A DNA stretch of 40,953 nucleotides from Nanobdellota archaeon (GTDB taxonomy: Archaea > Nanobdellota > Nanobdellia > Woesearchaeales > GW2011-AR9): positions 1 to 40,953 of the forward strand of contig JBBSZV010000001.1 of assembly GCA_038044525.1 (NCBI GenBank), given 5' to 3'. The number at the start of each line of letters is the position of its first letter. Position 1 is the first letter of the stretch. Made by a program: the position numbers and the translations under genes. The notes below the pieces were generated by a model. It saw only the letters and a program-made list of their open reading frames with translations. It ran no database searches and was not told where the DNA came from. Below, in pieces: positions 3,199 through 37,111 of this stretch.

Positions 3199-3199
3199 G

Positions 3200-17116: not shown

Positions 17117-17118
17117 TT

Positions 17119-17583
17119 TTATTCCGATGCTGCTTTCTCGGAAGAAGCCTCTTCGGCTGAAGAGATCACTTCTCCCCCTGCAGCTTTTATTTTTTCCACT
17201 GCACCTGCGCTGCAGGATTTTACCTTTAATTTTAATTTCAACGATGTTTTTCCGGTGCCTAATAATTTATTGTATCCCAATGCTTTGAGATCGATGGAAT
17301 AAAAGTTTCCTTCTTTAACTGCTTTTCCTTCTTTCACCAGCCGGTTGACCCGTTCGGGAGTGAAATAACTTACATTAACGGCTTTCACCACGATAGTGTT
17401 TTTAGATGTAAATCCATGCCGGCCTAAAGTGATGCCGAACCTTCCGTGCCCAGCGCGTTTGCCGGAACCTGCTCTACCCCGGCCGCCCCGGGAACCTGCG
17501 CCGCGGCGTTTCTTTCTGGCTCCGCCTCCGTGCGTTCCTCCGCCCCGGTACTTAGTGACTTTTTTTCGTTTAAAGGTTACCAT
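17119..17583 (-). CDS. rpl15: 50S ribosomal protein L15 (uL15)
   Basis: KYRGGGTHGGGARKKRRGAGSRGGRGRAG. Confidence 0.9.
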   Translation of the reverse strand: MVTFKRKKVTKYRGGGTHGGGARKKRRGAGSRGGRGRAGSGKRAGHGRFGITLGRHGFTSKNTIVVKAVNVSYFTPERVNRLVKEGKAVKEGNFYSIDLKALGYNKLLGTGKTSLKLKLKVKSCSAGAVEKIKAAGGEVISSAEEASSEKAASE

Positions 17584-17587
17584 GAGA

Positions 17588-18466
17588 TCACTTCTTCAAC
17601 ATCGCAAGAATATTGTTTGCCGCCAGCTGTTCATCTTGCGCATATAGTCCTTGGTCTAAAGAGCTGACGTATTTTTTAAATCGCGATAATTCTTCACGGA
17701 CTTGTTCTTCCAGCACCCCTTCAGGTGTTTTCGCGGATTCTTGGGAAGCAGAAGTATTTTGCGCGCCGCGCCCTGCGGGCGCTTCAGTCGCTTCGCTCCC
17801 ACTACGTACCCCACGCGCACGGTTATGAACGTAGATATCCCGATCAATGGCGTCGAAAATGGAATCGTCACCGAAACTGTAAAGCCAAGAGACCCGCGCA
17901 ATTGCTCCATGGGAAGCGTGCTTTTGCACATATTTTGGATCAAGAACGTAAATTCTGGTTTCATCAATCCTTGCATTTTTCAGCATTTCCATATTCTTGA
18001 CAAAATCATCTCCCTGGCCGAAGACACGTTCTGTGAACGTACGTTCTTCAGCATTCAATGTTTTATATTCCGCGGGAGTGGTTCCGATAGGAAGATAGCT
18101 GAACTCTGCATTGTATACAGATAGACGCAGTTTAGGCAGAGCGATCAGCGTTGTATCGGGAGCGGCAAGAGCCTGTTTAAAATCAGCTTGCGGGACAGGA
18201 TAGTTGCGCCGATTAATTAACTGCTCGAAGGCAGCATCAATATTTTGTAAAACGGGATTGTGAGCTTCTCGGGTCATTGCTAAGGTGGGAGTTTTATTCT
18301 TACCCTTAAGGAAGTATACTTCTCCGTCAGCGGTATAGAACCATTGGTCGCGCAATTTCGGATTATCTATCCGTTCGTTCATCAATTCGTCAGCGTGCAG
18401 CATGGTGCCCGGCTGAAGCTGGCGGTAAGCATCGCGTAAATTTCCGGTGATGGTTTCTAAAGTCAT
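17588..18466 (-). CDS. Operon-embedded unknown protein, family copy 1 (between rpl30 and rpl15)
   Basis: 292 aa. Its C-terminal half (ARVSWLYSFGDD...NRARGVR...GAQNTSASQESAKTPEGVLEE) is homologous to the ORFs at 21470 and 29799. Gaps to its neighbours are 2 nt and 4 nt. Confidence 0.65.
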   Translation of the reverse strand: MTLETITGNLRDAYRQLQPGTMLHADELMNERIDNPKLRDQWFYTADGEVYFLKGKNKTPTLAMTREAHNPVLQNIDAAFEQLINRRNYPVPQADFKQALAAPDTTLIALPKLRLSVYNAEFSYLPIGTTPAEYKTLNAEERTFTERVFGQGDDFVKNMEMLKNARIDETRIYVLDPKYVQKHASHGAIARVSWLYSFGDDSIFDAIDRDIYVHNRARGVRSGSEATEAPAGRGAQNTSASQESAKTPEGVLEEQVREELSRFKKYVSSLDQGLYAQDEQLAANNILAMLKK

Positions 18467-18468
18467 CT

Positions 18469-18903
18469 TTACAGCATCCTCTTGATCAGGTCTTTTATTT
18501 TATCGCCGCGGTTTCCTAATCCCCCGCCGACTTTAAAAGATGTTTTTATCCCTTTCTCGCCGAATCCTTTCTTAGGGGAATTGAGGACAAAATATCTTTT
18601 ATATTTCTTTCCGTTGAATTCCAATCCCTTTTTATCGCTTTCCAGGACTGCGCCGCGCTTCTCAACCAATTCTTTAACTGTATTATCATCGACATTTCCC
18701 CAGGTGATGTAATCTTTCACCTTGAAAAGCATGCCCCGGTATGCGGAATTGTTTTCTATCACTACGCAATGATTCTTACGATTAAGATTAAGCATGGTCA
18801 GGGTATCTTTCACCGGCTTGGTGACTTTAACCACCCCTCTTACTAAGATTACGGCTAATTTTCCATTTCCTTTCCCGTTATCTGAAGAGACTGCTTTTGC
18901 CAT
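18469..18903 (-). CDS. rpl30: 50S ribosomal protein L30 (uL30)
   Basis: KLAVILVRGVVKVTKPVKDTLTMLNLNRKNHCVV. ATG 18903 is preferred because it sits just after the rps5 stop; the alternative is 18921. Confidence 0.9.
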   Translation of the reverse strand: MAKAVSSDNGKGNGKLAVILVRGVVKVTKPVKDTLTMLNLNRKNHCVVIENNSAYRGMLFKVKDYITWGNVDDNTVKELVEKRGAVLESDKKGLEFNGKKYKRYFVLNSPKKGFGEKGIKTSFKVGGGLGNRGDKIKDLIKRML

Positions 18904-18904
18904 T

Positions 18905-19699
18905 TTATGCCGCAGCCCCATCGGATGATTTTTCTTTGAGCTTTCCTTCCATGATCGCTAATTTTCCGCGGTGTTCAGGTCGCACTTTTACTTCTGATAA
19001 TTTTTTCAATGCGTCCATCAGCGCGAAAATCAGATTCAGCTTGGTTCCGGTCTGCCCTTTGGTTTTGCTCCAGATATCTTTTACCCCGGCCAAGGCCAGT
19101 ACTTTTGCGCATTCTTTCTCTACGCATAACCCTTTTCCCTTAGGCGCCGGCATCAATTTCAAGCGCACCGAACCGCATCTGCCTTCCACTGCAAAAGGGA
19201 TGGTATTGGGTTCAGCTACGCCGGATTCCCAGCTTCCGCATCCGCGCCTGACCCGTATAAGATTGATTCTGGCTATCCGCTTGGCTTTATCTCTGGCCGG
19301 GACGGTCTCCTTGCTCTTTCCCACGCCCACGCCGACGTAACCGTTACGGTTGCCGACTACCGCGCAGACCTTGAAATGAATCTTATTCCCTTCCTGGGTT
19401 TTCTTCTGCGTCTGTTTGAAAATACGCCTTTGACCGCCGCCGAACTTACCTTTGGCCTGTCCTATGAGCAATAAATCTTCTTCCAGGTTGGGAAGTAAAG
19501 TCTCGACTATCTCTGCCTCAAGAATATTTTCTCCGCTGTCGAAGATGAAATCTATGTTGTTGATCGCCCCTTCCTTGACTTTCCTTCCTAAGGCAGTCTT
19601 TGGTTTCCACGCTGACTCTGGAGCCGGAACGGTCTCAATCTCTTTCTTGATCTCTTCCATTTCCGACAATTCTACTGGTTCCGGTACGTTTTCATTCAT
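18905..19699 (-). CDS. rps5: 30S ribosomal protein S5 (uS5)
   Basis: FKVCAVVGNRNGYVGVGVGKSKETVPARDKA... Confidence 0.92.
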   Translation of the reverse strand: MNENVPEPVELSEMEEIKKEIETVPAPESAWKPKTALGRKVKEGAINNIDFIFDSGENILEAEIVETLLPNLEEDLLLIGQAKGKFGGGQRRIFKQTQKKTQEGNKIHFKVCAVVGNRNGYVGVGVGKSKETVPARDKAKRIARINLIRVRRGCGSWESGVAEPNTIPFAVEGRCGSVRLKLMPAPKGKGLCVEKECAKVLALAGVKDIWSKTKGQTGTKLNLIFALMDALKKLSEVKVRPEHRGKLAIMEGKLKEKSSDGAAA

Positions 19700-20291
19700 T
19701 TTTTGTTTGACCCGTGATTTTTTGTTTGACTTGCATGAAAGCAGCGGCCATGTTTTCCGGCGCGGAGTTGCTTTTTAAATATTGCGCAAACTGCCGTTCA
19801 TAAACGTCTTTGTTTCCTTTGATCTTTTCCCCGTACTCTTGGACATGCTGCCCTTCAATCTTTTTCTCTTCCGGGAAAAGATCTGTTTCCCCGTGAGGTA
19901 CCGAAATGCCGGCATCTAATGCCCCCTTCAGGAAAGCATATATTCTCCCTTTATGCTGGGGATAATTTAATCCGGTATCCAATACTGAAGTGTCCTTAAA
20001 TTTTTTATCTTTAGCTTTCCTGCCCAGCAGAAAGCCGGTAAGATACGCCGCAGGAATATTTTTACAGGAATATTTCCAGCCATACTTACGCAGGGCAAAA
20101 GAATCTACACCCGCTAATATTTTATCTCCCTTGGGGGTGAATTCCACTAATTGGGCGATGACGCGGCTGTTGGTAAGGCGGACCACTATCCGTTTTTTTC
20201 CGGAGAGCAAAAGCTTTAATCTTTTGGGATAAGAGGTCTTATGTTCTCTTTTCCGTCGGTACATGACAGTTCTTGGTTTTCTTGATGCCAT
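19692..20291 (-). CDS. rpl18: 50S ribosomal protein L18 (uL18)
   Basis: RRKREHKTSYPKRLKLLLSGKKRIVVRLTNSRVIAQL. Confidence 0.92.
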   Translation of the reverse strand: MASRKPRTVMYRRKREHKTSYPKRLKLLLSGKKRIVVRLTNSRVIAQLVEFTPKGDKILAGVDSFALRKYGWKYSCKNIPAAYLTGFLLGRKAKDKKFKDTSVLDTGLNYPQHKGRIYAFLKGALDAGISVPHGETDLFPEEKKIEGQHVQEYGEKIKGNKDVYERQFAQYLKSNSAPENMAAAFMQVKQKITGQTKNE

Positions 20292-20346
20292 AGTTGATCC
20301 TTAGTTTTTTGTTTTTTATCCAGGTATTTTTTATTTGTGATATCCC

Positions 20347-20811
20347 TTATTTCTCTTGTTGTCCTGGTTTTGCTTCAATCAGATTGTGCTCCTTGATGTA
20401 AAGCTTGATGTGCCGCCGATTTCTGAAATAACCCCCCTTGCATTTGGTGTAAAGCATCCGGTAATTCTTAATGGAGAGCAGGCTTTTATCACGCAATTCT
20501 GTCAATAGATCGCGCTGGGCCCGTATTTTTGAAATCCATTTGTCTTTTCTGGTAACTACGGAATGTTTTGATCCTTTCCGGCTTCCTTTCCCCCGCCTTC
20601 TCCCTTTTCTCTTTTGAGCTGCAACCCGCCTGGCTCCGGCACGGGAATGTTGATTTTTAGCGACGATGAAGATCTTTCCTACGGCGACCAAGCCGCGGAT
20701 ATCTGAACGGGTGATGGCTTTCCGGATATCTTCCAGAGCATCAGGAGCGAACCTTATTTTCTTAGGCGAAACTTTCAATATTTTCGCCGCCAGTTCTTTT
20801 TTGTTTCTCAT
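20347..20811 (-). CDS. rpl19e: 50S ribosomal protein L19e (eL19)
   Basis: KKELAAKILKVSPKKIRF...HSRAGARRVAAQKRKGRRRGKGSRKG. Confidence 0.92.
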   Translation of the reverse strand: MRNKKELAAKILKVSPKKIRFAPDALEDIRKAITRSDIRGLVAVGKIFIVAKNQHSRAGARRVAAQKRKGRRRGKGSRKGSKHSVVTRKDKWISKIRAQRDLLTELRDKSLLSIKNYRMLYTKCKGGYFRNRRHIKLYIKEHNLIEAKPGQQEK

Positions 20812-20859
20812 TTTGTATCCTTTATTGCGTGTATTTTTATTTTTTGATCAGGTTGTTAT

Positions 20860-21480
20860 TTATTGGCGTTTAGTTATGGTTTTTTCCGCCATTTTCTTTT
20901 GCTGTTCTGCTTCGTTGTTTTCTTCTGCATGATCGTGATTATGGCTGTGATCGTGTTTGGGCTTTTTGTTTTCAGCTTCCTTCTTGGCGCGTTCTTCAGC
21001 TTTCTTTTTCTTTTCTTCTTCCTTTTTGCCGGTTTCTGCTAATTTTTTCTTCCGCAGCTCCTTGCGCTCTTGGAAACATTTATTTATGCTTTCTACCGCT
21101 TTGGCTGCGTCTTTTACGTTCAGCACCGCGATATCTTTTTTTTGCGCAGCTTCTAATAATGATATTTTCTTCTTCTTTCCCACGCCGGCGGCGATTATCG
21201 CCCCTTGAGTTTCCGGATCCATCGCCGAGAGCTCATCCAGGTTATGGACGACCACCATGGCTAACCCGGTGGGATGCAGACCCCGCACTTCTTCCGGCGC
21301 GCCATATCCCGGATTAGGCATAGCCGGCCGGCCGCAATGCATCTGCCTGACCTTGGAATGCCTTCCGTAAGGGTATCTCCAGCGTGATTCTATCCGGGAA
21401 AAGTTTGATTCCCTGACTACGAAAGCAGGCTTGGTCTTCCTCATCTCCTTCCGTACGGATAATAATTCTTTATTTGCCAT
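20860..21480 (-). CDS. rpl32e: 50S ribosomal protein L32e (eL32) with a ~75-aa K/E-rich, His-rich C-terminal tail
   Basis: WRYPYGRHSKVRQ...GYGAPEEVRGLHPTG core; the tail contains KPKHDHSHNHDH. Confidence 0.9.
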   Translation of the reverse strand: MANKELLSVRKEMRKTKPAFVVRESNFSRIESRWRYPYGRHSKVRQMHCGRPAMPNPGYGAPEEVRGLHPTGLAMVVVHNLDELSAMDPETQGAIIAAGVGKKKKISLLEAAQKKDIAVLNVKDAAKAVESINKCFQERKELRKKKLAETGKKEEEKKKKAEERAKKEAENKKPKHDHSHNHDHAEENNEAEQQKKMAEKTITKRQ

Positions 21481-22282
21481 GGTGTAGTTTTATTAAGTTT
21501 AGTATTGCCTGTTGTTTTAATCCGAAGTATTCCGGCTGGTTTTTTGTTCCCATGAAACCGTCAAAAACCGCTAATTCTTCTGCGATTTTTTCTTCCAGCA
21601 CCTCTTCGGATGTTTTTGCTGGTTCTCGGTAAGCAGAAGTATTTTTCGCGCCTTCGGTGCCTACCTCACGCACCAGACGAGCACGGCCGTTGCTGTCGAA
21701 AGGGTCGTTGAGGCAATAGAGGTAGAACCTATCTGTATAGGTGCCGAGCAAGACCGTCCTTTCAGGTATTAATTTTCTTTTACTTGCTGATGATGTCCAG
21801 AGGTAAGGTCGTTTTCCACTGAATCTATGCAGTACTTCCACCACTTCATCAACTTTCTGATGTCCAAAAGCGATCTGCACTACTTTTCGCCAGTCGTTGT
21901 CCTTCACCAAATTATCTAAATAGCCATTTCCTTCCGGAATAGTACACGAAATAACAGAAGGTTCATCTCCGAAATGAGTAATGGTATTCTTTTTGTGACA
22001 ATAACCAAACTGTGTGCCGGTGCATAAATAATCTTCCTGCAAATCTTTTAACAGGCCTGCTGAAGCAGGGTGGTTTTCTTTCTGCAAATGACGTATAAAG
22101 GAAAAATATTCCGGCAAAGTAGGAAGACGTTTTCCTGAACAGGCCAAATAACTCATCCACTCTGATTGGTTTTGAATAAGATAATTTCCATCTGCATCGC
22201 GAACGGCTTCGCCGTCCAAGGCCAGATTACCTAATACGATTGGCTCAACAGTTCTTTGCTCCAATGAAGTTGCAGGTTCCAT
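21470..22282 (-). CDS. Operon-embedded unknown protein, family copy 2 (between rpl6 and rpl32e)
   Basis: ATG 22282 is favoured: it lies 2 nt after the rpl6 stop and aligns with copy 3 (MEPATSLEQRTVEPIVL). The alternative ATG at 22318 overlaps rpl6. The 3' end overlaps the rpl32e start by 11 nt. Confidence 0.65.
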   Translation of the reverse strand: MEPATSLEQRTVEPIVLGNLALDGEAVRDADGNYLIQNQSEWMSYLACSGKRLPTLPEYFSFIRHLQKENHPASAGLLKDLQEDYLCTGTQFGYCHKKNTITHFGDEPSVISCTIPEGNGYLDNLVKDNDWRKVVQIAFGHQKVDEVVEVLHRFSGKRPYLWTSSASKRKLIPERTVLLGTYTDRFYLYCLNDPFDSNGRARLVREVGTEGAKNTSAYREPAKTSEEVLEEKIAEELAVFDGFMGTKNQPEYFGLKQQAILNLIKLHHGK

Positions 22283-22284
22283 TC

Positions 22285-22824
22285 TCACGCGCTCCCCGCC
22301 TTTTCTACGATATAACATCCGTCCTGGAAAATCCTGCGGTCCCGGTTGGTTATCCGGCAGGCGCTTTCTATCCGCGCCGCAGTCTGGCCGGTCGCTTCCA
22401 CGTCGGAACCGGACACCAATATTTCTTCGCCGTTCACTTTAACTTCCACTCCCGGCATGATCTTGATTTTCCGCGGCACTGCTTCTCCAAGGAAATTCTT
22501 GATAACTACTTCTTTTCCGGAAACGGAAACGTTCATGGGAAAGTGGCCTGAACATATTTTTAACTTATATTGATACGGCTCTTTCACGCCTTGGATCATG
22601 TTTCTTATGTGCGACCTGAAAGAACCCACCATGGTCTTTTCGCGTTTGGTCGCTTTCTGCGCGTAAAGGATGATTTTATTATTTTCCAGGGAAATGGTAA
22701 CTTTGGGATGGAGAAAATTCTTTTTCACTTCTCCTTTATGCCCTTTTATTTTTAAGATGCTCTTATCTAAGTTGGCAGTGATGCCGGTTCCCAGTTCAAT
22801 TTCCTTCCGGAGCTCTTCTTTCAT
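22285..22824 (-). CDS. rpl6: 50S ribosomal protein L6 (uL6)
   Basis: Two-domain L6 pattern: ILKIKGHKGEVKKNF...VSGKEVVIKNFLGE. Confidence 0.9.
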   Translation of the reverse strand: MKEELRKEIELGTGITANLDKSILKIKGHKGEVKKNFLHPKVTISLENNKIILYAQKATKREKTMVGSFRSHIRNMIQGVKEPYQYKLKICSGHFPMNVSVSGKEVVIKNFLGEAVPRKIKIMPGVEVKVNGEEILVSGSDVEATGQTAARIESACRITNRDRRIFQDGCYIVEKAGSA

Positions 22825-22825
22825 T

Positions 22826-23215
22826 TTAGTAACAGTAAGCGATAAGCTTTCCGCCGATCCTTTTTTCTTTCACGTTAAGATGCGTAGCCAGCCCTTGGGG
22901 TGTGGAAACGACGATGATGCCGAAATCCTTTGCCGGCAGATACCTTTTCTCCCATTTTTCAAATTCATCCTTGCCGGTGGAGAAACGCGGCTTTATCACT
23001 CCGCATTTGTTGATGTTCCCTAATAGGTGGACTTTCAAGACATTGCCCTTGCCGTCTTCGATCTCTTCAAATAAACCTATGTACCCCTGTTCATTCATGA
23101 TCGTCAATACCCGCTTGATTATCGATGAAGCCGGTTTGATAACTACTTCACGCTTCCCAACACGTTCTGCATTCAGCACCTTGGTCAAAGCTGCTGCCAA
23201 TGGGTCGTTAAACAT
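22826..23215 (-). CDS. rps8: 30S ribosomal protein S8 (uS8)
   Basis: MFNDPLAAALTKVLNAERVGKREVVIKPASSIIKRVLTIMNEQGYI. Confidence 0.92.
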   Translation of the reverse strand: MFNDPLAAALTKVLNAERVGKREVVIKPASSIIKRVLTIMNEQGYIGLFEEIEDGKGNVLKVHLLGNINKCGVIKPRFSTGKDEFEKWEKRYLPAKDFGIIVVSTPQGLATHLNVKEKRIGGKLIAYCY

Positions 23216-23293
23216 TTTTTTTATCCCCCGATATGTTTAATTTCATTTTTTTGAGTTTGTGTTTTTTTGTTTTATTTTTGCGGAAATCCGGCC

Positions 23294-23524
23294 TCAGCTG
23301 AATTTCTTGAACCCCAGCCCCAGAGCCATTTCCCGGAAACATTGCCGGCATATGTTCAGACCATACTTGTTTATGTGCCCTCTGGTCCTTCCGCAGTTTC
23401 TGCATTTGCGCAGAGCGACACCGCAGGAACGCTTTTTAGGGCTGTTGAACTTAAGATACTTGGCTTTCTTCACCGGTTTATGGTCCAGTTGCGTGAAAGC
23501 TTTTTTATAATCGCTGGTTGTCAT
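23294..23524 (-). CDS. rps14: 30S ribosomal protein S14 type Z (uS14), N-terminally extended
   Basis: [25 protein letters not shown] zinc ribbon. Confidence 0.88.
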
Positions 23525-23528
23525 GTTA

Positions 23529-24044
23529 TCAGTTAACCTCTACTCCCAACCCTCGGACGAATTCAATCGCTTCTTTCTGGCTTATCCGATGGCTTTTGCC
23601 TATGCTGCTCGGCTTGATCTTGCGTTTCTTTACCTTGAACCCCGGCCTTTCCAAGGTCACGGCCGCTTCCAAGCCCATGATTTTTAATTCTGGATCGTAA
23701 TCAAGCCCTTTGATATCGATATATTCCGGTATGCCGAAGGAAAAATTACCTTGGGAATCAAAGTTGCTTGTTTTTAAAGTGTTCTCTTTAGCTGCCAACA
23801 GGCGCAGCAATAATTCTTGGCAGCCGTCGCGTACGGTCACTTTGCACCCTATCGCCAATCCCGGACGCAATCCCCACCCGGGGACTCTTTTCTGGGTCTT
23901 GGTCTCCACCGGTTTGCAGGAAGTTATTTTTTCTAACAGCTTGAGCCCTTTCTTGAGCAGCTCCTCATTCTTTCCTGCGCCTACATTTAAAGTTACTTTC
24001 TCTATGTAGATTTCCTTCATGTGGTTTGGTTTTGCGTCTGCCAT
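23529..24044 (-). CDS. rpl5: 50S ribosomal protein L5 (uL5)
   Basis: [20 protein letters not shown]...[13 protein letters not shown]. Confidence 0.92.
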
Positions 24045-24048
24045 GATC

Positions 24049-24732
24049 TTAGTTGAGCGTGATCTCCGCTTCTTTTTCGCCTACGACAAAAAGATAGCTT
24101 TTTGCCGTCTCGACATCTTCCCCGTCTGCCGAATAGGTCGCTTCCTTGCCCTTGATCTCTTTCAGTAAGCCGGTATTGCCGGCATGCTTTCCTTTCGTCA
24201 AAAACACTTTAGCTCCGTTTTTTAGAGGAAGCACTTTTTTAATTTTAGCTTCCGGAAGCGAGATCAGGAAACTGTCGCCTACGTTTGCTGCCGTCGCCGT
24301 GACCATGTTTCTCCCGTCGTGAAGATTGAACTGCATTTTCCCGCCGGACAGCAGGGTTTTGCCGATAACTTTCTCTAATTTTACGCTGCTTTCCTGAGCG
24401 GATATCTCTTTCAACACCAGCCGGCCTTTTTTGTCCAGCACCATGCGGTAATATTTCTTGGTCTCGGGGATGGAAAGGACGTCAAACAGCCCTACTAAAA
24501 AGCCGTGATCCTTGCGCCTTTTTCCGTCAACCAGCACTTCTTTATTGTTCAATAATTTCTTTACTTCGCCCATGGTGGAAGCCAGACCTAAGTTGTCGCG
24601 CAGCAATATTCCTAACGGCAAGCCGCTGTCCAAAGCATGAGCTCCCGGGTTGGGCCGTAATATGAATGTGTTTACTTTCCGGTCCACAAACCAAGTTCGC
24701 GGGGAGGCGATGCGTTTCAGGTGATTTTTCAT
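24049..24732 (-). CDS. rps4e: 30S ribosomal protein S4e (eS4)
   Basis: MKNHLKRIASPRTWFVDRKVNTFILRPNPGAHALDSGLPL. Confidence 0.93.
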   Translation of the reverse strand: MKNHLKRIASPRTWFVDRKVNTFILRPNPGAHALDSGLPLGILLRDNLGLASTMGEVKKLLNNKEVLVDGKRRKDHGFLVGLFDVLSIPETKKYYRMVLDKKGRLVLKEISAQESSVKLEKVIGKTLLSGGKMQFNLHDGRNMVTATAANVGDSFLISLPEAKIKKVLPLKNGAKVFLTKGKHAGNTGLLKEIKGKEATYSADGEDVETAKSYLFVVGEKEAEITLN

Positions 24733-25151
24733 TTTTTTGATTCCTCTGGAGTTTTTGATTTGATCGATTTGATCTTTTCTTTTCCCAGTTTTCTTCGTTT
24801 ATCTGCCATTTCCAAGACCACGATCATAAGATTGGAAGGCTTGAAAGAGATCGGAACTTTATTTCCGCCTTTCTTGGTATATTCGAAACCGTCGATGAAA
24901 ATACGTTCGCGTTTCAGATCCACTTTTCCTATCTTTCCTTCCTGCCTCTTGAATTTGCCGCGCTGCACTTTTACCCTATCCCCTTTGTGCGCCTGCGCCG
25001 CTCGGGTGCCGTATTTTTTACGAAGTTCAGATGACAGGTGGATATGGACTAATTTTTGCCGTACGTGCAGGGGCGCGTTATGCCTGTACTTGTGCTGTTT
25101 GCGCGGCTGGATGCTTCCCTTCCAACTGGTGGAAAATTTTTTGGTTGTCAT
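24729..25151 (-). CDS. rpl24: 50S ribosomal protein L24 (uL24)
   Basis: KOW motif HKGDRVKVQRGKFKRQEGKIGKV; ATGA overlap with rps4e. Confidence 0.9.
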   Translation of the reverse strand: MTTKKFSTSWKGSIQPRKQHKYRHNAPLHVRQKLVHIHLSSELRKKYGTRAAQAHKGDRVKVQRGKFKRQEGKIGKVDLKRERIFIDGFEYTKKGGNKVPISFKPSNLMIVVLEMADKRRKLGKEKIKSIKSKTPEESKK

Positions 25152-25193
25152 TTTTTTATGTTATGGTTTATTATTGTCCCGTTTATTATGATC

Positions 25194-25595
25194 TTATATT
25201 ACCATGCTGGCTACTTTCGCCACCGCCGGCCATCGCTCTGCGACTTCCTTGGCGATAGGCCCCTTGAAAATAGTCCCCTTGGGATTTCCTTTATCGTCTT
25301 TCAATACTACCGCGGCATTATCTTCGAACTTTATCCTGGTGCCGTCCGGCCTGCGGTATTCTTTTCTTTGCCTTACGATAACTGCATACACTACTGTTTT
25401 TCTCATTTCCAGTTTCCCTTTCTTTACTGAAGCGACGACCAGATCGCCCACTCCGGCGGAAGCTACTCTTCCTTTGACGGTCTTTTGGCCTACTACGCAA
25501 AATATCTTCAACAGTTTAGCGCCGGAGTTGTCACAGACATGGACGCGTGCTTCTAAAGGAAGCCCCTTTGTTACATTGCTTTTAAGCGCTTTCAT
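25194..25595 (-). CDS. rpl14: 50S ribosomal protein L14 (uL14)
   Basis: VCDNSGAKLLKIFCVVG...AVIVRQRKEYRRPDGT. Confidence 0.93.
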   Translation of the reverse strand: MKALKSNVTKGLPLEARVHVCDNSGAKLLKIFCVVGQKTVKGRVASAGVGDLVVASVKKGKLEMRKTVVYAVIVRQRKEYRRPDGTRIKFEDNAAVVLKDDKGNPKGTIFKGPIAKEVAERWPAVAKVASMVI

Positions 25596-25608
25596 TTTTG
25601 GTTTTTAC

Positions 25609-26145
25609 CTATAGATAAAAATACATTTTATCCGGTTGTTTTTCTTCCTCTTTGTTTTCTTCTTCTTTCCTTTTAAACTGCAAGCTTACCTTCTCCAGAA
25701 AATAAACCAGACCCAGCAGCCCCAAACTACTTAAATTGCCGATTGCGAAAGTCCCGGCATCACGCTTGGCATACTGAACTTTTTGTTCTAACTTGGTTTT
25801 TGATGGTAGTACTAATGTATCATATTTTTGTTGTGAAAGTTCTAATTCTTTTTCAAGACCTGCGTGTTCAGTTGTTACTTTCATGCACCTTTGTAAGCCA
25901 GCATCATTGAGATAAACCCCTCTTTCGTGCGTGCAAAAGTCGTACTCCGATTTAAGAGAATCTATTTTGCTTGCAATACCGCTTATTTCTTGTTTAATCG
26001 GTTCTGCAACCTCTTGCAGCATCTCCAGCTGAGATTTGTATGTACCTGCAGAGCCCGCATTTGCAGAGCAACCAAAGTAAGTTACGACGGCTCCTGCAAC
26101 AGCAGTAATTTTCATTCCGGTTCCTATTTTATGTATCAGACTCAT
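25609..26145 (-). CDS. Operon-embedded small membrane/coiled-coil protein (178 aa), paralog of the 26142 ORF
   Basis: N-terminus MSLIHKIGTGMKITAVAGAVVTYFGC, a coiled-coil middle and a C-terminal TM LSSLGLLGLVYFL. ATGA overlap upstream; ends 13 nt before rpl14. Confidence 0.6.
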   Translation of the reverse strand: MSLIHKIGTGMKITAVAGAVVTYFGCSANAGSAGTYKSQLEMLQEVAEPIKQEISGIASKIDSLKSEYDFCTHERGVYLNDAGLQRCMKVTTEHAGLEKELELSQQKYDTLVLPSKTKLEQKVQYAKRDAGTFAIGNLSSLGLLGLVYFLEKVSLQFKRKEEENKEEEKQPDKMYFYL

Positions 26146-26450
26146 TCTTCCCGCCCCCGTTGCGAAAGATAATTTCCTAAACCTAACAGGCAGATCGAAC
26201 CTAAAATGCCGGTGGTCGCGTATAATTGCCAGTTATGATAATCTATACTATATATTTTCAGCTCATCCAATTTTTTATTGATGGCATCTCTTTCTGTTTT
26301 AATTGAAGTTCCGAATTCCTCCAGCACTTTTATTTGCGCGGCGATATCTTCCAGATTTTGTTTCGCATCAATGCAGGTAGAAAGAGACCCGGCTAAACCG
26401 ACTATACTAACAACTTTCATTCCAGTTCCTATTTTGCTTTTCAAACTCAT
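26142..26450 (-). CDS. Operon-embedded small membrane/coiled-coil protein (102 aa)
   Basis: N-terminus MSLKSKIGTGMKVVSIVGLAGSLSTC, a coiled coil and a C-terminal TM GILGSICLLGLGNYL. ATGA overlap with the rps17 stop. Confidence 0.6.
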   Translation of the reverse strand: MSLKSKIGTGMKVVSIVGLAGSLSTCIDAKQNLEDIAAQIKVLEEFGTSIKTERDAINKKLDELKIYSIDYHNWQLYATTGILGSICLLGLGNYLSQRGREE

Positions 26451-26878
26451 TCTTCTTCACCTGCTTCTGCAGCAGCCTTCTTCTTTGCGATTTTCTTTCC
26501 CGGCTCTTCCGCGCCGAATACTTGCTCGACTTTTCCTTCTTTGAGGATTTGGATTATGACATGATGTTTAGTCTTGCTTAACGGCCGGGTTCTGGCCACT
26601 AACACCGACTGCCCGACTTGAGCATCCAGGCAAGGCGGATTATGGACGCGTAATCTTGATCTTCGCAATTCATAACGCTCATACTTCTGGACGTAATGCG
26701 GCCTGAACCATTCGATGGTCGCAGACTTGTTGGTGTCTCTCTTGACTACCTTCCCGGTAAGCAATTCTTTTTTCACCACTAAACCGCCGGTAAAAGGGCA
26801 GTTCTTATCGTAGTACTGACTATCATAAGCCCGCTCAGGAGCGGGAATTCCCAACACTTCTTTCCTTGTATTTGCCAT
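26447..26878 (-). CDS. rps17: 30S ribosomal protein S17 (uS17)
   Basis: CPFTGGLVVKKELLTGKVVK...RLRVHNPPC...LVARTRPLSKTKHHVI. Confidence 0.92.
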   Translation of the reverse strand: MANTRKEVLGIPAPERAYDSQYYDKNCPFTGGLVVKKELLTGKVVKRDTNKSATIEWFRPHYVQKYERYELRRSRLRVHNPPCLDAQVGQSVLVARTRPLSKTKHHVIIQILKEGKVEQVFGAEEPGKKIAKKKAAAEAGEEE

Positions 26879-26880
26879 GT

Positions 26881-27135
26881 TTATCCTTTAAGCCTGTCTT
26901 CAGGCCGTTTTGCGATGCTTTCCCCGGAGATGATCTTTCCAGATCTCACCAGCTTAAAGACGATTATCTTCTTCATCAGGACCGCTTCCTCGCCGCCGTC
27001 CTGAAGCACTTTCATCGTCTCTTTGGTTTCGTCGATGACTTTCCCCCTGATTCCGGCATTGCTCTTGTTTTTGGAATCGATCACTTCTATCTCTTCTCCG
27101 ATCAATTCGTGGGGAAATGTTTCTTTCCGAACCAT
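26881..27135 (-). CDS. rnp1: RNase P protein component 1 (Rpp29/Pop4)
   Basis: ELIGEEIEVIDSKNKSNAGIRGKVIDETKETMKV, in the canonical slot between SUI1 and rps17. ATG 27135 is preferred; a GTG at 27144 is an alternative. Confidence 0.8.
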   Translation of the reverse strand: MVRKETFPHELIGEEIEVIDSKNKSNAGIRGKVIDETKETMKVLQDGGEEAVLMKKIIVFKLVRSGKIISGESIAKRPEDRLKG

Positions 27136-27173
27136 GTGATTCACTGCTCCACCAAGATAATTAATCTTGATGT

Positions 27174-27479
27174 TCAGGCGACTTCGATAGTCTCCTCGGG
27201 AAACCCGAGTTCTATCAAGGCTGATTTCATCCTTGATTTGTGATCGCCCTGAAGCTCTATTTTGCCTGTTTTGGCAGTTCCGCCGCAGGCAAACTTTGAC
27301 TTCAATGTCTTGAATATCTCGTTGATGTTGGCTTCCTTTTGGATGCCACTGATGATGGTATATTTTTTTCCAAACTTTCTTTTTTCTATAGCCACGTTTA
27401 TTTTTTGCTGCTCACGAGCAATGGCTTCGCAGACGCACAAGTCCTCTGGAAGCCCGCATTGGTTGCATACTCCGATCAT
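27174..27479 (-). CDS. sui1: Translation initiation factor SUI1 (aSUI1/eIF1 homolog)
   Basis: KRKFGKKYTIISGI...KSKFACGGTAKTGKIELQGDH. Confidence 0.9.
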   Translation of the reverse strand: MIGVCNQCGLPEDLCVCEAIAREQQKINVAIEKRKFGKKYTIISGIQKEANINEIFKTLKSKFACGGTAKTGKIELQGDHKSRMKSALIELGFPEETIEVA

Positions 27480-27483
27480 TCTA

Positions 27484-27684
27484 TTATTGCTGCCACCCCT
27501 TCTGTTTAAGCACTGTCAATACTCTGGCGATATTCTTTTTTGTCCTTTTTACTTTTCCTGAACTGGCGCTGCCGGTTCCCGCTCCGACTTCAATTTTGAA
27601 TTTCAATAGCTCCTTTTTAAATTCTCTTAAACGATTTTGCAGTTCGGCCGCTGACAGCCCAGATAATTCTTTCATAACTTTCAT
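27484..27684 (-). CDS. rpl29: 50S ribosomal protein L29 (uL29)
   Basis: LSGLSAAELQNRLREFKKELLKFK. Confidence 0.9.
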   Translation of the reverse strand: MKVMKELSGLSAAELQNRLREFKKELLKFKIEVGAGTGSASSGKVKRTKKNIARVLTVLKQKGWQQ

Positions 27685-28541
27685 TCTTCTTTCGCCCCGG
27701 CATTGTCTGCGGTACTGGCAGTTTCAGTTTTTGTCACTGCCGCCTCATCTTTTGCTTCATCATTATCGGCAGGATCAGCTGCGGCAGCTTCTGCCGTTTC
27801 TTTGCTTGCTTCTTTCGCTGCCGGCTGCGGCGCTTCAGGGGCTTTTTCCTTGTTTTTTTTTCTGCTGGCCCTTTTTCGCGGCGAGGCTTCTTTCTTGACC
27901 GGTTTTTTTTCTTCCTTGACCACTGCCGCTTCTTTGACCTGCTCCAGCTCTTCCAAGATGGTAGTCCGGTCCGGAAGCCTGATGTCCGGCGGCATGATTG
28001 CTACTTTCACGCCGATGATACCGCTTTTCAGCAGGGCTGACCGTTTTGCGGTCCGTACGGAAAGAGCTACGTCGCCGCATTTTTTCAAGTATCCAGTATA
28101 AAATCTCCAGCTTTTTGCTCTGGCACTGGGAACTTTTCCAGAGATGATTATTTCCACGCCTAAAGCTCCGGCGTTCATGACATTCTCCATCATCTTATGC
28201 CCTACCCCTTTGAAACGGGCTGAGCCGAAACGTTCCAAAGATGACACGATCCTTTCAGCGACCACGTTGGCATCAAGAAAAATATTTTTAACTTCGTTGA
28301 TTTCGATTTGTGGATTTTCCAGATTGAATTTTTCTTTTAACGCTTTGGTGAGAGACCTGATGTTAGCTCCCTTTGAACCGACGATCAAACTTGGCCTGCT
28401 GGTATTGATAACTATTTTTTCGCCGAGAGGGATCTTCTTTAATGAGATGCTGGAGATTCCTACGCTGCCGAGCATCTCCCCTACATATTTACGGATAAAA
28501 TATTCCCTCGTTTTCTGCGCTATGAATGTCCTTTCAATCAT
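27681..28541 (-). CDS. rps3: 30S ribosomal protein S3 (uS3) with an A/E/K-rich C-terminal tail
   Basis: KH-domain N-terminus MIERTFIAQKTREYFIRKYV...; ATGA overlaps on both sides. Confidence 0.93.
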   Translation of the reverse strand: MIERTFIAQKTREYFIRKYVGEMLGSVGISSISLKKIPLGEKIVINTSRPSLIVGSKGANIRSLTKALKEKFNLENPQIEINEVKNIFLDANVVAERIVSSLERFGSARFKGVGHKMMENVMNAGALGVEIIISGKVPSARAKSWRFYTGYLKKCGDVALSVRTAKRSALLKSGIIGVKVAIMPPDIRLPDRTTILEELEQVKEAAVVKEEKKPVKKEASPRKRASRKKNKEKAPEAPQPAAKEASKETAEAAAADPADNDEAKDEAAVTKTETASTADNAGAKEE

Positions 28542-29305
28542 TTTCTTCCACCTGCTGACCGTAATGAGCCTTTCTTTTTAAGCTGTTCATATAAATCAGA
28601 AACTTCATTGGTTTCCTTCTGCTCTTTCTCGCGCTTTTTTAATTCAGCTGCTTTCTGCTGCGCCCGCCGCAATAATTCCTCTGAAGACGGCTCAGCATTG
28701 TGAACCGGCTTTGCAGACTTGATTTCCGGTTTATGATCGTGTTTAATCTCAGTTTTTATTTCCGGTTTTATTTCAGATTTTATTTCCTGCTGCGCTGCCG
28801 GAGCGGCTTCTTTAATTTCTTTTGCCGCCGTTTCTTTGACCATCGATTCAACTTTTTTAGCTTCCGCTTTTTTCTTGGCGAATTTCTCTCGCACTTCCAC
28901 TTCCACGTGAGTCCGTTTAGTTGCGCCCCCATGCCGGCCGCCGGTTAATGGGATTGAAGCCCGGTTGGCTAAAATTTTAGTTATTTTCAGATTAGAGACG
29001 TCCAATCCTTTCGCCTGTGCGTTGGCTTCGACTGATTTTAGCAGGCGCAATATCTCTTTTGCTGCTTTCTGTGGATATCTGCCTGCTGACATTCCGGCCT
29101 TGTGGGCGATGTTCATTACTGATCTCTTATACGGAACCGCTCTTTTCAATAAGGAAACTTCTTCCACGAACTTCTTCGCATAGGAAATATCCTTGAACCG
29201 CAAAGAGCGGCAGATTTCCACGCACTGCTTGGTGGATACCGGCAAATTCAAAGCCCGGGCTATTGCGGTGTGTCCGGAATCTTTTGAAGTTGTATTTTTT
29301 GCCAT
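28538..29305 (-). CDS. rpl22: 50S ribosomal protein L22 (uL22) with a ~100-aa repeat-containing C-terminal extension
   Basis: LNLPVSTKQCVEICRSLRFK...RYPQKAAKEILRLLKSVEANA core. ATG 29305 lies after the rps19 stop. The tail contains EIKSEIKPEIKTEIK. Confidence 0.9.
   Translation of the reverse strand: MAKNTTSKDSGHTAIARALNLPVSTKQCVEICRSLRFKDISYAKKFVEEVSLLKRAVPYKRSVMNIAHKAGMSAGRYPQKAAKEILRLLKSVEANAQAKGLDVSNLKITKILANRASIPLTGGRHGGATKRTHVEVEVREKFAKKKAEAKKVESMVKETAAKEIKEAAPAAQQEIKSEIKPEIKTEIKHDHKPEIKSAKPVHNAEPSSEELLRRAQQKAAELKKREKEQKETNEVSDLYEQLKKKGSLRSAGGRK
28754..28789. repeat. Three tandem 12-nt units (TTTTATTTCCGG / TTTTATTTCAGA / TTTTATTTCCTG) encoding xEIK repeats in the L22 tail
   Basis: Read directly on the plus strand; degenerate copies flank it at about 28721-28753. 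Confidence 0.6.
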
Positions 29306-29309
29306 TTCC

Positions 29310-29690
29310 TTACCTTGCTGAGATAGCTTTGCTTGATCTGGTTGCGCCGACACCTGCTGCGCTGTGGGTAACGCCTTTCCTGGTGTGCGAAAATTCTCCT
29401 AAATAATGCCCCACCATCTGCGCACCGATTATGACCATGAGATATTCTTTCCCGTTGTAAACGCGTAGAGTTTTACCGACCATCTGTGGGACAATAACCA
29501 TGTCCCGGCAATGAGTCTTGACATTATTCTCGCCGGCAGTGATTCTTTTCATCAAAGCTTTCTGCGCATCCGTAAATCCGCGCTTCAACGACCGCCTCTG
29601 TCTCGAAGTAGTCAGTTCTTTAAACTGCTCTAAGTCCATATTCTTTAATTCTTCTTCCGTTTTTCCTTTCCAGGTGAATTCTTTTGCCAC
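29310..29690 (-). CDS. rps19: 30S ribosomal protein S19 (uS19), GTG start
   Basis: THCRDMVIVPQMVGKTLRVYNGKEY...GHYLGEFSHTRK. The start codon at 29688-29690 reads GTG. Confidence 0.9.
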   Translation of the reverse strand: MAKEFTWKGKTEEELKNMDLEQFKELTTSRQRRSLKRGFTDAQKALMKRITAGENNVKTHCRDMVIVPQMVGKTLRVYNGKEYLMVIIGAQMVGHYLGEFSHTRKGVTHSAAGVGATRSSKAISAR

Positions 29691-29798
29691 AAACTTCTAA
29701 AAGTTTGATCATTAGGGCGACTTCGCTTGCGCTTCAGTCACCTATTGTATCAAACTTCCCTCCAATTAATTTTTAATGATAATGTTGATTTCATTTGA

Positions 29799-30641
29799 TT
29801 ATTTTAATTTCTCCATCATTCTTTTAAATTCTTCCCATGAATACGCAGACATATACCGTTCGTCTGCCGTCCGTTGTAAAACATCTCCGGTAACTGGAGC
29901 TTCTTGGGGAACGATCTGGACGAATGAATTCCATAACGGCTCTGCCACTAACGGCTTGGCGATCATCAATATCTCGTCACGGGTGCGTTGTCGAACCGCA
30001 GGCATTTCCAGAGAAAGGTTTTCGATTCCGCGCGTTGGTGCTTCCCTGCTCGCTTCGCCCGCACCACGCACCCCGCGAGCACGGTCGTAGCTGTAGATAG
30101 GGCTGCTGTAGCAATCGAGGCTGAACCTATCTGTACCGCTACTGAGCCAGACCGCCCTTTCTGGAAATGCTTTTCTGCTTTCCGCTGATGGTGTCCAGAT
30201 GAAAGGTCGTTTTCCACTTGCGCTCTGAATCGTACTGATTGTTTCTAACGCATCGTACTGGAATGTCTCCTCTTCCAATGCTCTCTTCCAGGCAGGATTT
30301 TTCACTAAAACATCAAGATAACCATCACCGATTGGAAGATTGCTTTTATCATAATCTATTTTTGTGCTGGTGCACAAAGCATATTCCAGTAAATCTTGTA
30401 ATATTCCTGTTAAATGGGGATCATTTTCTTCATGTAATTGTTTTATTGCCGCAACATACTCCCCCACTGTAGGAAGGCGTTTTCCAAAAGGAGCAAGATA
30501 CCTTTCCCACCCTTGTTTAGAATCAACGCGATAACTTCCATTTGGATCACGGATTGCTTCCCCGTCCAACAGCAAGCCGTGGTCTAACACGATCGGCTCG
30601 ACAGTTCTGGTTTCTGATGTTTGCAGTGCTTCCATCTTCAT
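29799..30641 (-). CDS. Operon-embedded unknown protein, family copy 3 (between rpl2 and rps19)
   Basis: 280 aa with an ATGA overlap with the rpl2 stop. Shares RTVEPIVL, LDGEAIRD, GKRLPTVGEY, SGKRPFIWTPSA, PERAVWLSSGTDRF and DRARGVR with copy 2. Confidence 0.65.
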   Translation of the reverse strand: MKMEALQTSETRTVEPIVLDHGLLLDGEAIRDPNGSYRVDSKQGWERYLAPFGKRLPTVGEYVAAIKQLHEENDPHLTGILQDLLEYALCTSTKIDYDKSNLPIGDGYLDVLVKNPAWKRALEEETFQYDALETISTIQSASGKRPFIWTPSAESRKAFPERAVWLSSGTDRFSLDCYSSPIYSYDRARGVRGAGEASREAPTRGIENLSLEMPAVRQRTRDEILMIAKPLVAEPLWNSFVQIVPQEAPVTGDVLQRTADERYMSAYSWEEFKRMMEKLK

Positions 30642-31345
30642 TTCTTCCTTCTACCCGTTCTTCGCGGCGCGATCTTACCTACTTTACGTCCCGGCGGAGC
30701 GCTTCTCGGCGACTGCGTCGGCCGTCCTTTCACGTGGGAACATTTTCCGCCGAATGGATGGTCTACAGCGTTCATGGATACCCCGCACACGTGCGGATAT
30801 AATTTATTTCTGGCCCGCATCTTATGATAATGTGTTCCTGCTTTTAGGAATGGCTTCTCTAATCTTCCGCTCCCTGCCAAGACACCGATGCCTGCTCTGC
30901 AGGCCGGCAAAAATAATTTTTCTTTCTTTGACGGCAGTTCTACCCGCACGGCTTCTTCCGTCTTGGAAATAACTCTGGCAAATGAGCCGGAAGCCCGTAC
31001 TAATTTTCCGCCGTCATATGGATTCAGTTCAATGTTATGGATCAATGTTCCTTCTGGAATGTCGCGTAAAGCCATGACATTTCCCATTTTTGCTTCCGTG
31101 CTCTGTCCGATTGATATTTCATCGCCCACTCTAATGCCTTCAGGAGCAAATGACAATCCTTTTTCTCCGTTAGAGTAAGCGACCTCCATCAAAGGGGCGC
31201 TATGCCCTGCACAATGAATCAGATCAGTGATTTTTCCATTAGTTTCTGCGCGGCAATGCTTGACTGCTCCTGCAAAGCGGTGGCTGGGCGAGCGATACGT
31301 CGGTGTGCCGCGTCCACGGCGTTGCTGTATCAGTTGCTTACCCAT
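30638..31345 (-). CDS. rpl2: 50S ribosomal protein L2 (uL2)
   Basis: MGKQLIQQRRGRGTPTYRSPSHRF...MNAVDHPFGG...APPGRKVGKIAPRRTGRRKK. Confidence 0.95.
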   Translation of the reverse strand: MGKQLIQQRRGRGTPTYRSPSHRFAGAVKHCRAETNGKITDLIHCAGHSAPLMEVAYSNGEKGLSFAPEGIRVGDEISIGQSTEAKMGNVMALRDIPEGTLIHNIELNPYDGGKLVRASGSFARVISKTEEAVRVELPSKKEKLFLPACRAGIGVLAGSGRLEKPFLKAGTHYHKMRARNKLYPHVCGVSMNAVDHPFGGKCSHVKGRPTQSPRSAPPGRKVGKIAPRRTGRRKK

Positions 31346-31346
31346 C

Positions 31347-31664
31347 TTATATCAGCCCCAAGTCCGCGCTCACGTCGGAAGCCAGATGTTCGGGGCTTAA
31401 TTTTACATGCGCTTTTTTTACGCCGGTGAACGAGTTGTCCACATTCACTTTCATGACTTTGACATTGTACAGCTGTTCGATGGCTTTTTTTACGTCAGCT
31501 TTGGTCGCTTTCGGCGAGACCACAAACACTAATTTGTTCTGCGATTCGATCTGCCGGATATTCTTTTCTGTGGCCAAAGGATACTTGATGACCGTATACG
31601 GATCGAAAGCATTATCAGTTACGACTGCTGCCGGTACCTTTCCTGCCTTAACTTTTTTTGCCAT
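31347..31664 (-). CDS. rpl23: 50S ribosomal protein L23 (uL23)
   Basis: DPYTVIKYPLATEKNIRQIESQNKLVFVVSPKATKADVKKAIEQLYNVKV. Confidence 0.92.
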   Translation of the reverse strand: MAKKVKAGKVPAAVVTDNAFDPYTVIKYPLATEKNIRQIESQNKLVFVVSPKATKADVKKAIEQLYNVKVMKVNVDNSFTGVKKAHVKLSPEHLASDVSADLGLI

Positions 31665-31666
31665 TT

Positions 31667-32473: not shown

Positions 32474-32474
32474 T

Positions 32475-36720: not shown

Positions 36721-36975
36721 CTATTGGTCATCAGTTTTATCTTCATCTTTTTTCACATGAATAATATTCACCGGACAGACATCTGCCGCTTCCTGGTTGC
36801 TTTCTGCATCTTCTTTGGAATCGATCTCTAATTCGTAATGATCGTCAACTTCAACAGAATCCTTCAGATGCGCCAGGCCTTGCTCGTCCATCTTCCAGAA
36901 TTCAGGATTGACGGCAGCGCAGGCGCCGCAGCTGATGCAGTCTTTCTTGAAATGGATTATTTTGTATTTGGCCAT
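36721..36975 (-). CDS. Small ferredoxin (single Fe-S cluster type)
   Basis: CISCGACAAVNPEFW ... CPVNIIHV (CxxCxxC...CP). Confidence 0.75.
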   Translation of the reverse strand: MAKYKIIHFKKDCISCGACAAVNPEFWKMDEQGLAHLKDSVEVDDHYELEIDSKEDAESNQEAADVCPVNIIHVKKDEDKTDDQ

Positions 36976-37082
36976 GTTTTATGTTGGAATAAGAGCTATT
37001 TATAATATTTTCTGGGGGAAATCTGCCGGGAGTAGTTTAAAAAGAGTCATATTTTACCGGGATTCCCGGCATTTTAGGAGCA

Positions 37083-37090
37083 TTTATAAA
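37083..37090 (+). promoter_or_regulatory. TATA-like box TTTATAAA
   Basis: About 25 nt upstream of ATG 37112. Confidence 0.4.
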
Positions 37091-37111
37091 TCAGACTTAA
37101 TTTTAGGTTAT

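Follow-up and report, generated by a model that had tools for sequence, protein, structure and literature searches.

The 40,953-bp stretch analyzed here, referred to as the window, comprises positions 1 to 40,953 (forward strand) of contig JBBSZV010000001.1 from the Nanobdellota archaeon assembly GCA_038044525.1. It carries an archaeal ribosomal-protein operon in which three additional open reading frames, designated ORFs A, B and C, are placed between conserved genes, and these ORFs are very probably variable-protein (target) genes of diversity-generating retroelements (DGRs). The operon was delineated from the list of ORFs and Pfam matches, and is collinear with that of locus L002, the closest relative of the window, whose genes have Pfam labels. 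The main features are as follows.

15725-33443, minus strand: host ribosomal-protein operon
32475-33443, minus strand: L3, upstream end of the operon
29799-30641, minus strand: ORF C, 280 amino acids (aa), L2/S19 junction, probable DGR variable-protein gene of B/C type
21470-22282, minus strand: ORF B, 270 aa, L6/L32e junction, probable DGR variable-protein gene of B/C type
17588-18466, minus strand: ORF A, 292 aa, L30/L15 junction, probable DGR variable-protein gene of AvpA-like type (A-type)
15725-17116, minus strand: SecY, downstream end of the operon

The gene order reads L3-L4-L23-L2-(C)-S19-L22-S3-L29-SUI1-RNaseP p29-S17-(two small ORFs)-L14-L24-S4e-L5-S14-S8-L6-(B)-L32e-L19e-L18-S5-L30-(A)-L15-SecY, with the flanking genes L2, S19, L6, L32e, L30, L15, L23, S17, L14 and SecY identified by Pfam. 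All three ORFs were intact, and they lay on the minus strand at the junctions where a preliminary description of this DNA had placed them. Its account of tight junctions held for five of the six joints: L2 and ORF C share an ATGA overlap, gaps of 2 nucleotides (nt) separate L6 from ORF B and L30 from ORF A, ORF A is 4 nt from L15, and ORF B overlaps L32e by 11 nt. The sixth joint, between ORF C and S19, is an untranslated gap of 108 nt (29691-29798) in front of a GTG start codon of S19; this gap also occurs in L002, measures only 2 nt in the related locus L001, and may hold an internal promoter or a processing site. For ORF B, 22282 is the likely start; an in-frame ATG at 22318 is also open and would produce a 34-nt overlap with L6. 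Inserts often have their stop codon immediately inside the start of the next gene, as in ..AAT GGG TAA over ATG GGT AAG. Such short gaps and overlaps of start and stop codons suggest co-transcription of the inserts with the ribosomal proteins and, probably, translational coupling to them.

ORFs B and C are clear paralogs that align end to end with 41% identity (BLASTP E 3e-53), whereas the alignment of ORF A with either is limited to its C-terminal 50-100 aa (E 4e-10 and 4e-8). An hhalign comparison of the A family with the B/C family gave 93.5%, or 75.9% with a deeper profile, over approximately 80-120 columns. Since the likeness is confined to this C-terminal module, ORF A is assigned to a separate and larger family; the homology of all three ORFs proposed earlier is thus borne out in full for B and C and, as had been claimed, for the shared module of A, which otherwise stands apart. 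The B/C family yielded 11 matches in a word-indexed search, all from metagenome-assembled genomes (MAGs) of Nanoarchaeota, and 138 representative clusters at E<=1e-3 (33 at E<=1e-30) in an exhaustive profile search, with most profile matches ending at the protein C-terminus behind varied N-terminal extensions. The A family comprised 76 homologs from Nanoarchaeota/Woesearchaeota. No model in Pfam or NCBIfam matched either family.

A template repeat (TR) and a variable region (VR) that form a repeat pair with mismatches at the TR adenines are the hallmark of a DGR, and the motif [I/L]GxxxSQ is the signature of its reverse transcriptase (RT). Two types of TR would be expected for the window genes, a B/C-type repeat that is TTCAACCTCAATTGCAACAACAACCCT-like and an A-type repeat that is TGGCTTAACAATTTCAATAAC-like. 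The putative VRs and the elements downstream of them are listed here.

30073-30158, minus strand: VR of ORF C (VR_C), homologous to the B/C-type TR, encoding ..RAVWLSSGTDRFSLDCYSSPIYSYDRAR
21673-21760, minus strand: VR of ORF B (VR_B), homologous to the B/C-type TR, encoding ..RTVLLGTYTDRFYLYCLNDPFDSNGRAR
17811-17899, minus strand: VR of ORF A (VR_A), homologous to the VR of protein P0023 in the related locus L004, encoding ARVSWLYSFGDDSIFDAIDRDIYVHNRARG
17768-17782, minus strand: GC hairpin 3' of VR_A, GCGCCC-GCA-GGGCGC, placed like GCGCCC-GAA-GGGCGC in the L004 target with adjacent TR and RT
21648-21661, minus strand: imperfect GC hairpin 3' of VR_B, GCACC-GAA-GGCGC, one mismatch from the GCGCC-GCA-GGCGC stem of relatives
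17684-17767, minus strand: post-VR tail segment of ORF A, shared at the nucleotide level with ORF B 21569-21652 (82% over 84 nt)

In an entropy profile of 30 homologs, invariant columns of VR_A alternate with hypervariable ones. Across the VRs of the three window genes and five relatives, variable codons change at positions 1 and 2 and keep position 3, with invariant codons interleaved, and this codon variation is read as the AAY pattern. From it a TR was predicted beforehand (TTC AAC CTC AAT TGC AAC AAC AAC CCT), and species-representative genomes were scanned for it in degenerate form. As a result, VRs were retrieved together with two loci that carried the exact predicted sequence, L012 and L015, each copy lying directly upstream of an RVT_1 gene.

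Complete cassettes were found in relatives for both types. Locus L004 contains an A-type gene (P0023, 64% identical to ORF A), followed by the VR repeat and an RVT_1 gene. Its target segment 6565-6656 is repeated at 7075-7166 with 80 of 92 positions identical, and all 12 mismatches fall at adenines of the downstream copy, the TR. The same TR also fits another A-type gene at a distance of 9 kb, and the hidden Markov model of the A family also matches the N-terminus of the L004 'RT' ORF. Cassettes of the B/C type are laid out target-TR-RT in L019, L024 and L025. The RTs (RVT_1) of L004, L012, L024 and L025 all contain LGNLTSQ and YVDD.

Two of these cassettes can be matched to operon genes from the same sample or the same MAG. 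L019 derives from the same Hainich H32 sample as L002, and its TR (TR_L019) differed from its own VR at 12 of 27 adenines and at none of 58 other positions. The same counts (12/27 and 0/58) were obtained against the VR of the L002 gene at L2/S19, and the L6/L32e VR of L002 gave 16/27 adenine mismatches and 1/58 others. L024 and L001, which are contigs 82 and 17 of one MAG (GCA_053531235.1), allowed the comparison within a single genome: the L024 TR differed from the L2/S19 VR of L001 at 10 of 25 adenines and 1 of 60 other positions, and the RT in this MAG is intact. Furthermore, lineage-specific non-adenine bases co-vary between the TR and the VRs of each genome (CGC GTT vs CGT GCT), as expected from repeated overwriting of VRs by a genome's own TR. 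Judged from these repeats, the operon-embedded genes of the relatives are real remote DGR targets.

Two observations concern the B/C-type cassettes themselves. The RT of L019 (2210-3429) has a TAG where YVDD requires a Tyr codon, with a frameshift some 35 codons further on, and looks like a pseudogene or the product of errors in a ~9x assembly; despite these lesions, the L2/S19 VR of L002 is still free of non-adenine mismatches to its TR. The cassette-adjacent targets are 398-402 aa long (L019 847-2043, P0011; L024 2471-3667; L025 1455-2663) and appear by eye to consist of a J-domain-like N-terminus (..Y(V/H)HPD(K/R)GGD..), a charged coiled region and a VR-bearing core. No DnaJ match was obtained for them in Pfam or NCBIfam; if the putative J-domain is real, such a target would be a hypervariable Hsp70 co-chaperone.

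The VRs of the window were scored against TRs that are foreign to it, those of B and C against TR_L019 and that of A against the TR of L004. VR_C showed mismatches at 11 of 27 TR adenines and 3 of 58 other positions (Fisher p 1e-4), and VR_B at 11/27 and 4/58 (p 3e-4), with a nearly invariant Trp replaced by Leu. For VR_A the counts were 17/31 and 15/71 (p 1e-3). In all three VRs the enrichment at adenines thus reaches significance without being clean. In every pair, the TR/VR homology stops at CGTGCTCGT(GG). Downstream, folding z-scores of the hairpin DNA ranged from -0.7 to +1.5 and did not differ from those of shuffled sequences. The post-VR tail segment of ORF A is 88% identical to that of the L6/L32e copy in L002 (L002 18930-19024), and outside the 84-nt segment shared with ORF B no nucleotide similarity was detected between the DNA of A and B/C; the likeness could reflect recent recombination or a common cis element 3' of the hairpin.

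A structural model connects ORF A to a known DGR protein. The AlphaFold (AF2) model, built from a 30-sequence alignment, reached a predicted local distance difference test score (pLDDT) of 85.5, and a Foldseek search of PDB returned a sole significant match, AvpA (5ioo_A; E 9e-7, probability 1.0, template-modelling score 0.67 on the target), the next match being at E 0.26. PDB sequence and profile searches with the ORFs and families gave nothing meaningful and did not retrieve 5ioo. In the model the VR lies on strands 189-219, followed by a disordered linker and two helices, and ORF A is accordingly predicted to have a C-type-lectin fold. The preliminary description had suggested a C-type-lectin or FGE-like fold from the motifs RLPT..E, W.. 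and R.RGVR; for ORF A this proved right at the level of the fold, and membership of the Pfam families did not follow. No match to PF07603 (DUF1566) or PF03781 (FGE-sulfatase) was found for the three ORFs at E<=1, for 12 B/C and 30 A family members at E<=10, or for 57 distant B/C relatives at E<=0.01, and membership was ruled out on the lack of a match among these 12, 30 and 57 family members.

Taken together, the three ORFs are interpreted, with a probability of roughly 0.87, as DGR variable-protein genes, one of an AvpA-like type (A) and two of a related orphan type (B and C). Because neither a TR nor an RT is present on the contig, the window genes are read as remote targets, and we infer their link to a specific TR-RT. 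The genome would have, or have had, its own TR-RT cassette off this contig, whose DGR-type RT would copy TR RNA into complementary DNA (cDNA) with misincorporation opposite adenines; the mutagenized cDNA would then replace the VRs of the operon genes in trans. In this way AAY codons could come to specify many different amino acids, with the scaffold (W, L, F, C, P and R.RGVR) left unchanged. The predicted protein plan is a ligand-binding core of ~190-220 aa, with the VR as its last ~25-30 residues, and a two-helix tail of ~50-90 aa whose DNA would hold the GC hairpin typical of the region 3' of the VR in DGR targets; ORF C, for example, comprises a core of ~190 aa, the VR and a slot-specific tail of 88 aa. 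Diversification would fall on a ligand-binding patch of a C-type-lectin scaffold, so that the proteins may bind variable ligands. The position in the ribosomal-protein operon would provide strong constitutive transcription, not function.

Several results weigh against this interpretation. Within the window, blastn with the 3' halves matched only the three genes themselves, and the larger ORFs showed no RVT domain. The lineage's own TR was not found in three collections (genome contigs, metagenome and viral contigs): the pattern scan of genome contigs recovered TRs and VRs of relatives and not the TR of this genome, the metagenome scan for the A-type TR recovered the L004 lineage only, and two scans of viral contigs gave no match. 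The closest RT homologs showed 84-85% identity and came from other lineages. Compared with the nearest known TR, VR_B and VR_C have 3-4 non-adenine differences each; non-adenine sites also distinguish the two from one another, and they are therefore not both fresh copies of one TR. No hairpin is evident 3' of VR_C, and that of VR_B is imperfect. The AF2 model for B/C, based on 12 sequences, reached a pLDDT of only 63.6 and matched no fold; we infer a C-type-lectin fold for this family from two things only, the VR anatomy and the hhalign alignment with the A family. Finally, little variation was seen among close variants. The VRs in the 90%-identity cluster of ORF C (4 sequences, >10 contigs) were identical to that of the window, as were those of P0091 and P0093, full-length variants of ORF A, and the sole VR change among near-identical A and C variants was a C-to-T substitution exchanging His and Tyr, while flanking residues differed.

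Part of this evidence bears on a refinement of the DGR interpretation, in which the retroelement has been lost or is dead in this lineage, the VRs drift slowly and the proteins are relic binders of fixed specificity. We regard this as a genuine possibility, though at odds short of even. It would account for a contig lacking TR and RT, for VRs that stay identical in the 90%-cluster variants of several assemblies while their flanks differ, for the non-adenine mismatches of VR_B and VR_C, the lost Trp and broken hairpin stem of VR_B, and for the TAG and frameshift in the B/C-type RT from the closest relative's sample (L019). Nevertheless, those lesions could be errors of the ~9x assembly, consensus assemblies hide VR diversity within populations, and all three ORFs are intact. 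Past activity is more readily traced: between the window and L002, whose DNA is 88-93% identical, the orthologous VR_C sequences have diverged at almost all adenine sites but at hardly any other position. Homing therefore took place after the two lineages split, and not among the sampled near-identical strains.

To place the three inserts in the context of related genomes, the occupied junctions are given for each locus.

Window: L2/S19, L6/L32e and L30/L15
L002: L23/L2, L2/S19 and L6/L32e
L001: L23/L2, L2/S19 and L30/L15, the last with a B/C-type gene
L017: L4/L23, and L23/L2 with a third core family and the same tail
L018: L2/S19

DGR targets are thus found at varying ribosomal-protein operon junctions in at least five genomes of one clade. 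ORF C has positional orthologs in the same slot of L002 (86% aa identity) and L001 (54%). The tail of ORF B is nearly identical to that of the L6/L32e copy in L002, and its core is 46-53% identical to all others. The L23/L2 gene of L002 (8497-9296, ~800 bp) is cleanly absent from the window at 31342-31348, where the surrounding DNA is ~90% identical; the indel unit runs from ATG to ATG, with ATGG flanking both sides. Paralog cores within one genome are 76-84% alike, compared with about 60% for positional orthologs between genomes, whereas the tails are slot-specific; this pattern therefore points to gene conversion or cassette swapping.

The clean ATG-to-ATG presence or absence of an ~800-bp gene between genomes ~90% identical, together with the variable occupancy of junctions, would also fit insertion between conserved genes by selfish mobile cassettes, for instance free-standing genes of the homing-endonuclease kind. 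This explanation is scarcely credible: domains of nucleases, integrases or transposases are absent from all members of the families, no terminal repeats stood out at the junctions that were inspected, and the indel is equally explained by deletion or by recombination between paralogs. A homing-endonuclease or transposon origin was rejected on the absence of nuclease and integrase domains.

The same placement, with overlapping start and stop codons and kept in five or more related genomes, could instead indicate a new ribosome- or translation-associated protein family whose operon position reflects a function on the ribosome, and some homologs outside the operon adjoin EF-1beta and RtcA, or IF-2. 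However, close relatives differ in which junctions are occupied, one slot may house different core families, and many homologs lie in unrelated contexts (between EndoV and SMC, in tandem arrays, or with ParE and an RT). Hypervariability of a surface site is the opposite of a conserved ribosome contact, and the fold and TR/VR evidence favor DGR ligand binders. No ribosomal family in Pfam or NCBIfam matched the ORFs or their homologs. A role on the ribosome is accordingly very unlikely. The preliminary description had offered either this role or operon hitchhiking: the latter probably holds, given the common strand and the short gaps and overlaps, while the former loses ground to homologs outside ribosomal-protein operons, some of them beside a TR and RT with adenine-only mismatches. 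A result that it had itself named as weakening its claim was obtained, as homologs are scattered elsewhere and have a described, unrelated function; it had not recognized the ORFs as DGR variable-protein genes. In the tandem arrangement on the Woesearchaeota contig L007 (5324-8158), three A-family genes encode 224, 245 and 241 aa, and the next gene, of 233 aa, has no match to the family profile.

At L23/L2 of L017 (6104-6907) the gene has a third, unrelated core (14-24% identity to B/C); its putative VR is N-rich (..VNDLDYNSNAGGGGNLNYSGSF..), and it carries the two-helix tail also seen in the A and B/C genes, so that genes in these slots share the tail and not the core. A further proposal goes beyond DGR targets in a favorable transcription unit: the ribosomal-protein operon of this clade might be a dedicated docking site for DGR-diversified binders, gained, lost and exchanged as ATG-to-ATG cassettes with several cores and a common two-helix tail at five or more junctions and made along with the ribosomal proteins, with the tail perhaps serving as an anchor that links the binder to the translation machinery or to a shared partner. 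We consider this unlikely; if true, it would amount to a programmable, ribosome-linked recognition system.

The interpretation as DGR targets draws on several described systems. AvpA (PDB 5ioo) is a DGR variable protein of Nanoarchaeota with a C-type-lectin fold (Handa et al. 2016, PMC5006420). Its VR is internal and near the C-terminus, followed by a 46-residue tail predicted as two helices, the DNA of which holds a hairpin/cruciform, and a function in symbiosis was proposed for it by the authors (PMC5006420). The window resembles AvpA in the fold of ORF A, an internal AAY-rich VR of ~25-30 residues, a predicted two-helix tail whose DNA has a hairpin in A (imperfect in B, not evident in C), a nanoarchaeal host and the lack of an evident signal peptide, none being apparent by eye in ORFs A, B and C. 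It differs in that no sequence similarity was detected, the structural alignment with ORF A showing 14% identity, and the B/C family is not tied to AvpA by fold. Moreover, AvpA has a TR and RT nearby, whereas the window genes have neither on the contig and lie inside a ribosomal-protein operon.

Remote DGR targets are known from the TvpA paralogs of Treponema denticola (Wu et al. 2018, PMC5758913). As there, one TR-RT serves several dispersed targets with homologous VRs, here in the pairs L002 with L019 and L001 with L024; in contrast, the remote targets here lie between core ribosomal-protein genes with start/stop overlaps, at junctions that differ by genome. In five DGRs of the CPR set of the same study (candidate-phyla-radiation and DPANN metagenomes), ribosomal-protein genes lie between DGR genes; the study also mentions an 'S3 ribosomal protein' target whose N-terminus is diversified (PMC5758913). 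These loci share with the window a physical association with ribosomal-protein genes in ultra-small prokaryotes, but were a passing remark in which no embedding at operon junctions was described (PMC5758913). DUF1566 and FGE-sulfatase domains are common VR carriers in bacterial DGR targets (Wu et al. 2018, PMC5758913). The window ORFs recall them in RLPT..E near the first helix, a W/aromatic scaffold and a C-terminal R.R.VR-like strand, a resemblance that, in view of the missing Pfam match, is at most fold-level.

Mtd of Bordetella phage BPP-1, a phage tail-fibre protein, is the prototype DGR target and has its VR at the extreme C-terminus with TR and RT adjacent. It has been compared with AvpA (PMC5006420). 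Mtd and the window genes would have in common adenine-directed VR diversification, a C-type-lectin scaffold (putative for B and C), a conserved VR 3' end and a nearby GC hairpin (imperfect in B, not evident in C); the window genes differ as cellular genes (no viral-contig match) with a post-VR tail and a putative TR-RT in trans.

DGRs of Nanoarchaeota, orphan C-type-lectin targets, and multiple and remote targets have already been described (PMC4372165, PMC5006420, PMC5758913). In the literature search, no paper describing DGR targets embedded at operon junctions was found apart from the passing mention. What is new is therefore the operon-junction context of DGR targets within a ribosomal-protein operon, and not a new ribosomal factor. 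We know of no other natural system of targeted protein hypermutation in prokaryotes than DGRs. They are abundant in DPANN and CPR lineages, and nearly all of their targets lack a known function. Here, several remote targets sit within the operon that is the cell's most conserved and is probably expressed at the highest level. This embedding suggests high, growth-coupled expression; the hypervariable proteins would probably be made constitutively and in large amounts, which constrains ideas on their role. The clade also offers a compact natural example in which a single TR serves targets across a genome in trans. For annotation, 'extra' ORFs in the ribosomal-protein operons of ultra-small archaea may be DGR targets rather than novel ribosomal proteins, and such embedding would account for the earlier oddity of ribosomal-protein genes between DGR parts (PMC5758913).

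Elsewhere in the operon, the order is not otherwise intact, as had been stated, since two extra small paralogous ORFs lie between S17 and L14. These are non-ribosomal minus-strand ORFs at 26142-26450 (102 aa) and 25609-26145 (178 aa), paralogous at their N-termini (MSL..KIGTGMK, E 7e-10), with hydrophobic N- and C-terminal segments and no Pfam match. They are present in L002 and L003 and absent from L001 and L018, and a 91-aa ORF at S3/L29 of L018 bears a weak likeness to them (E 0.037). Rfam and tRNA scans of the window gave no match. Two low-GC islands (3001-4000 and 37001-38000; GC 0.33-0.34 vs about 0.45) coincide with an N6/N4 DNA methylase gene (3200-3967) and a gene for a 390-aa HATPase_c-domain protein (36908-38080), and were possibly acquired horizontally.

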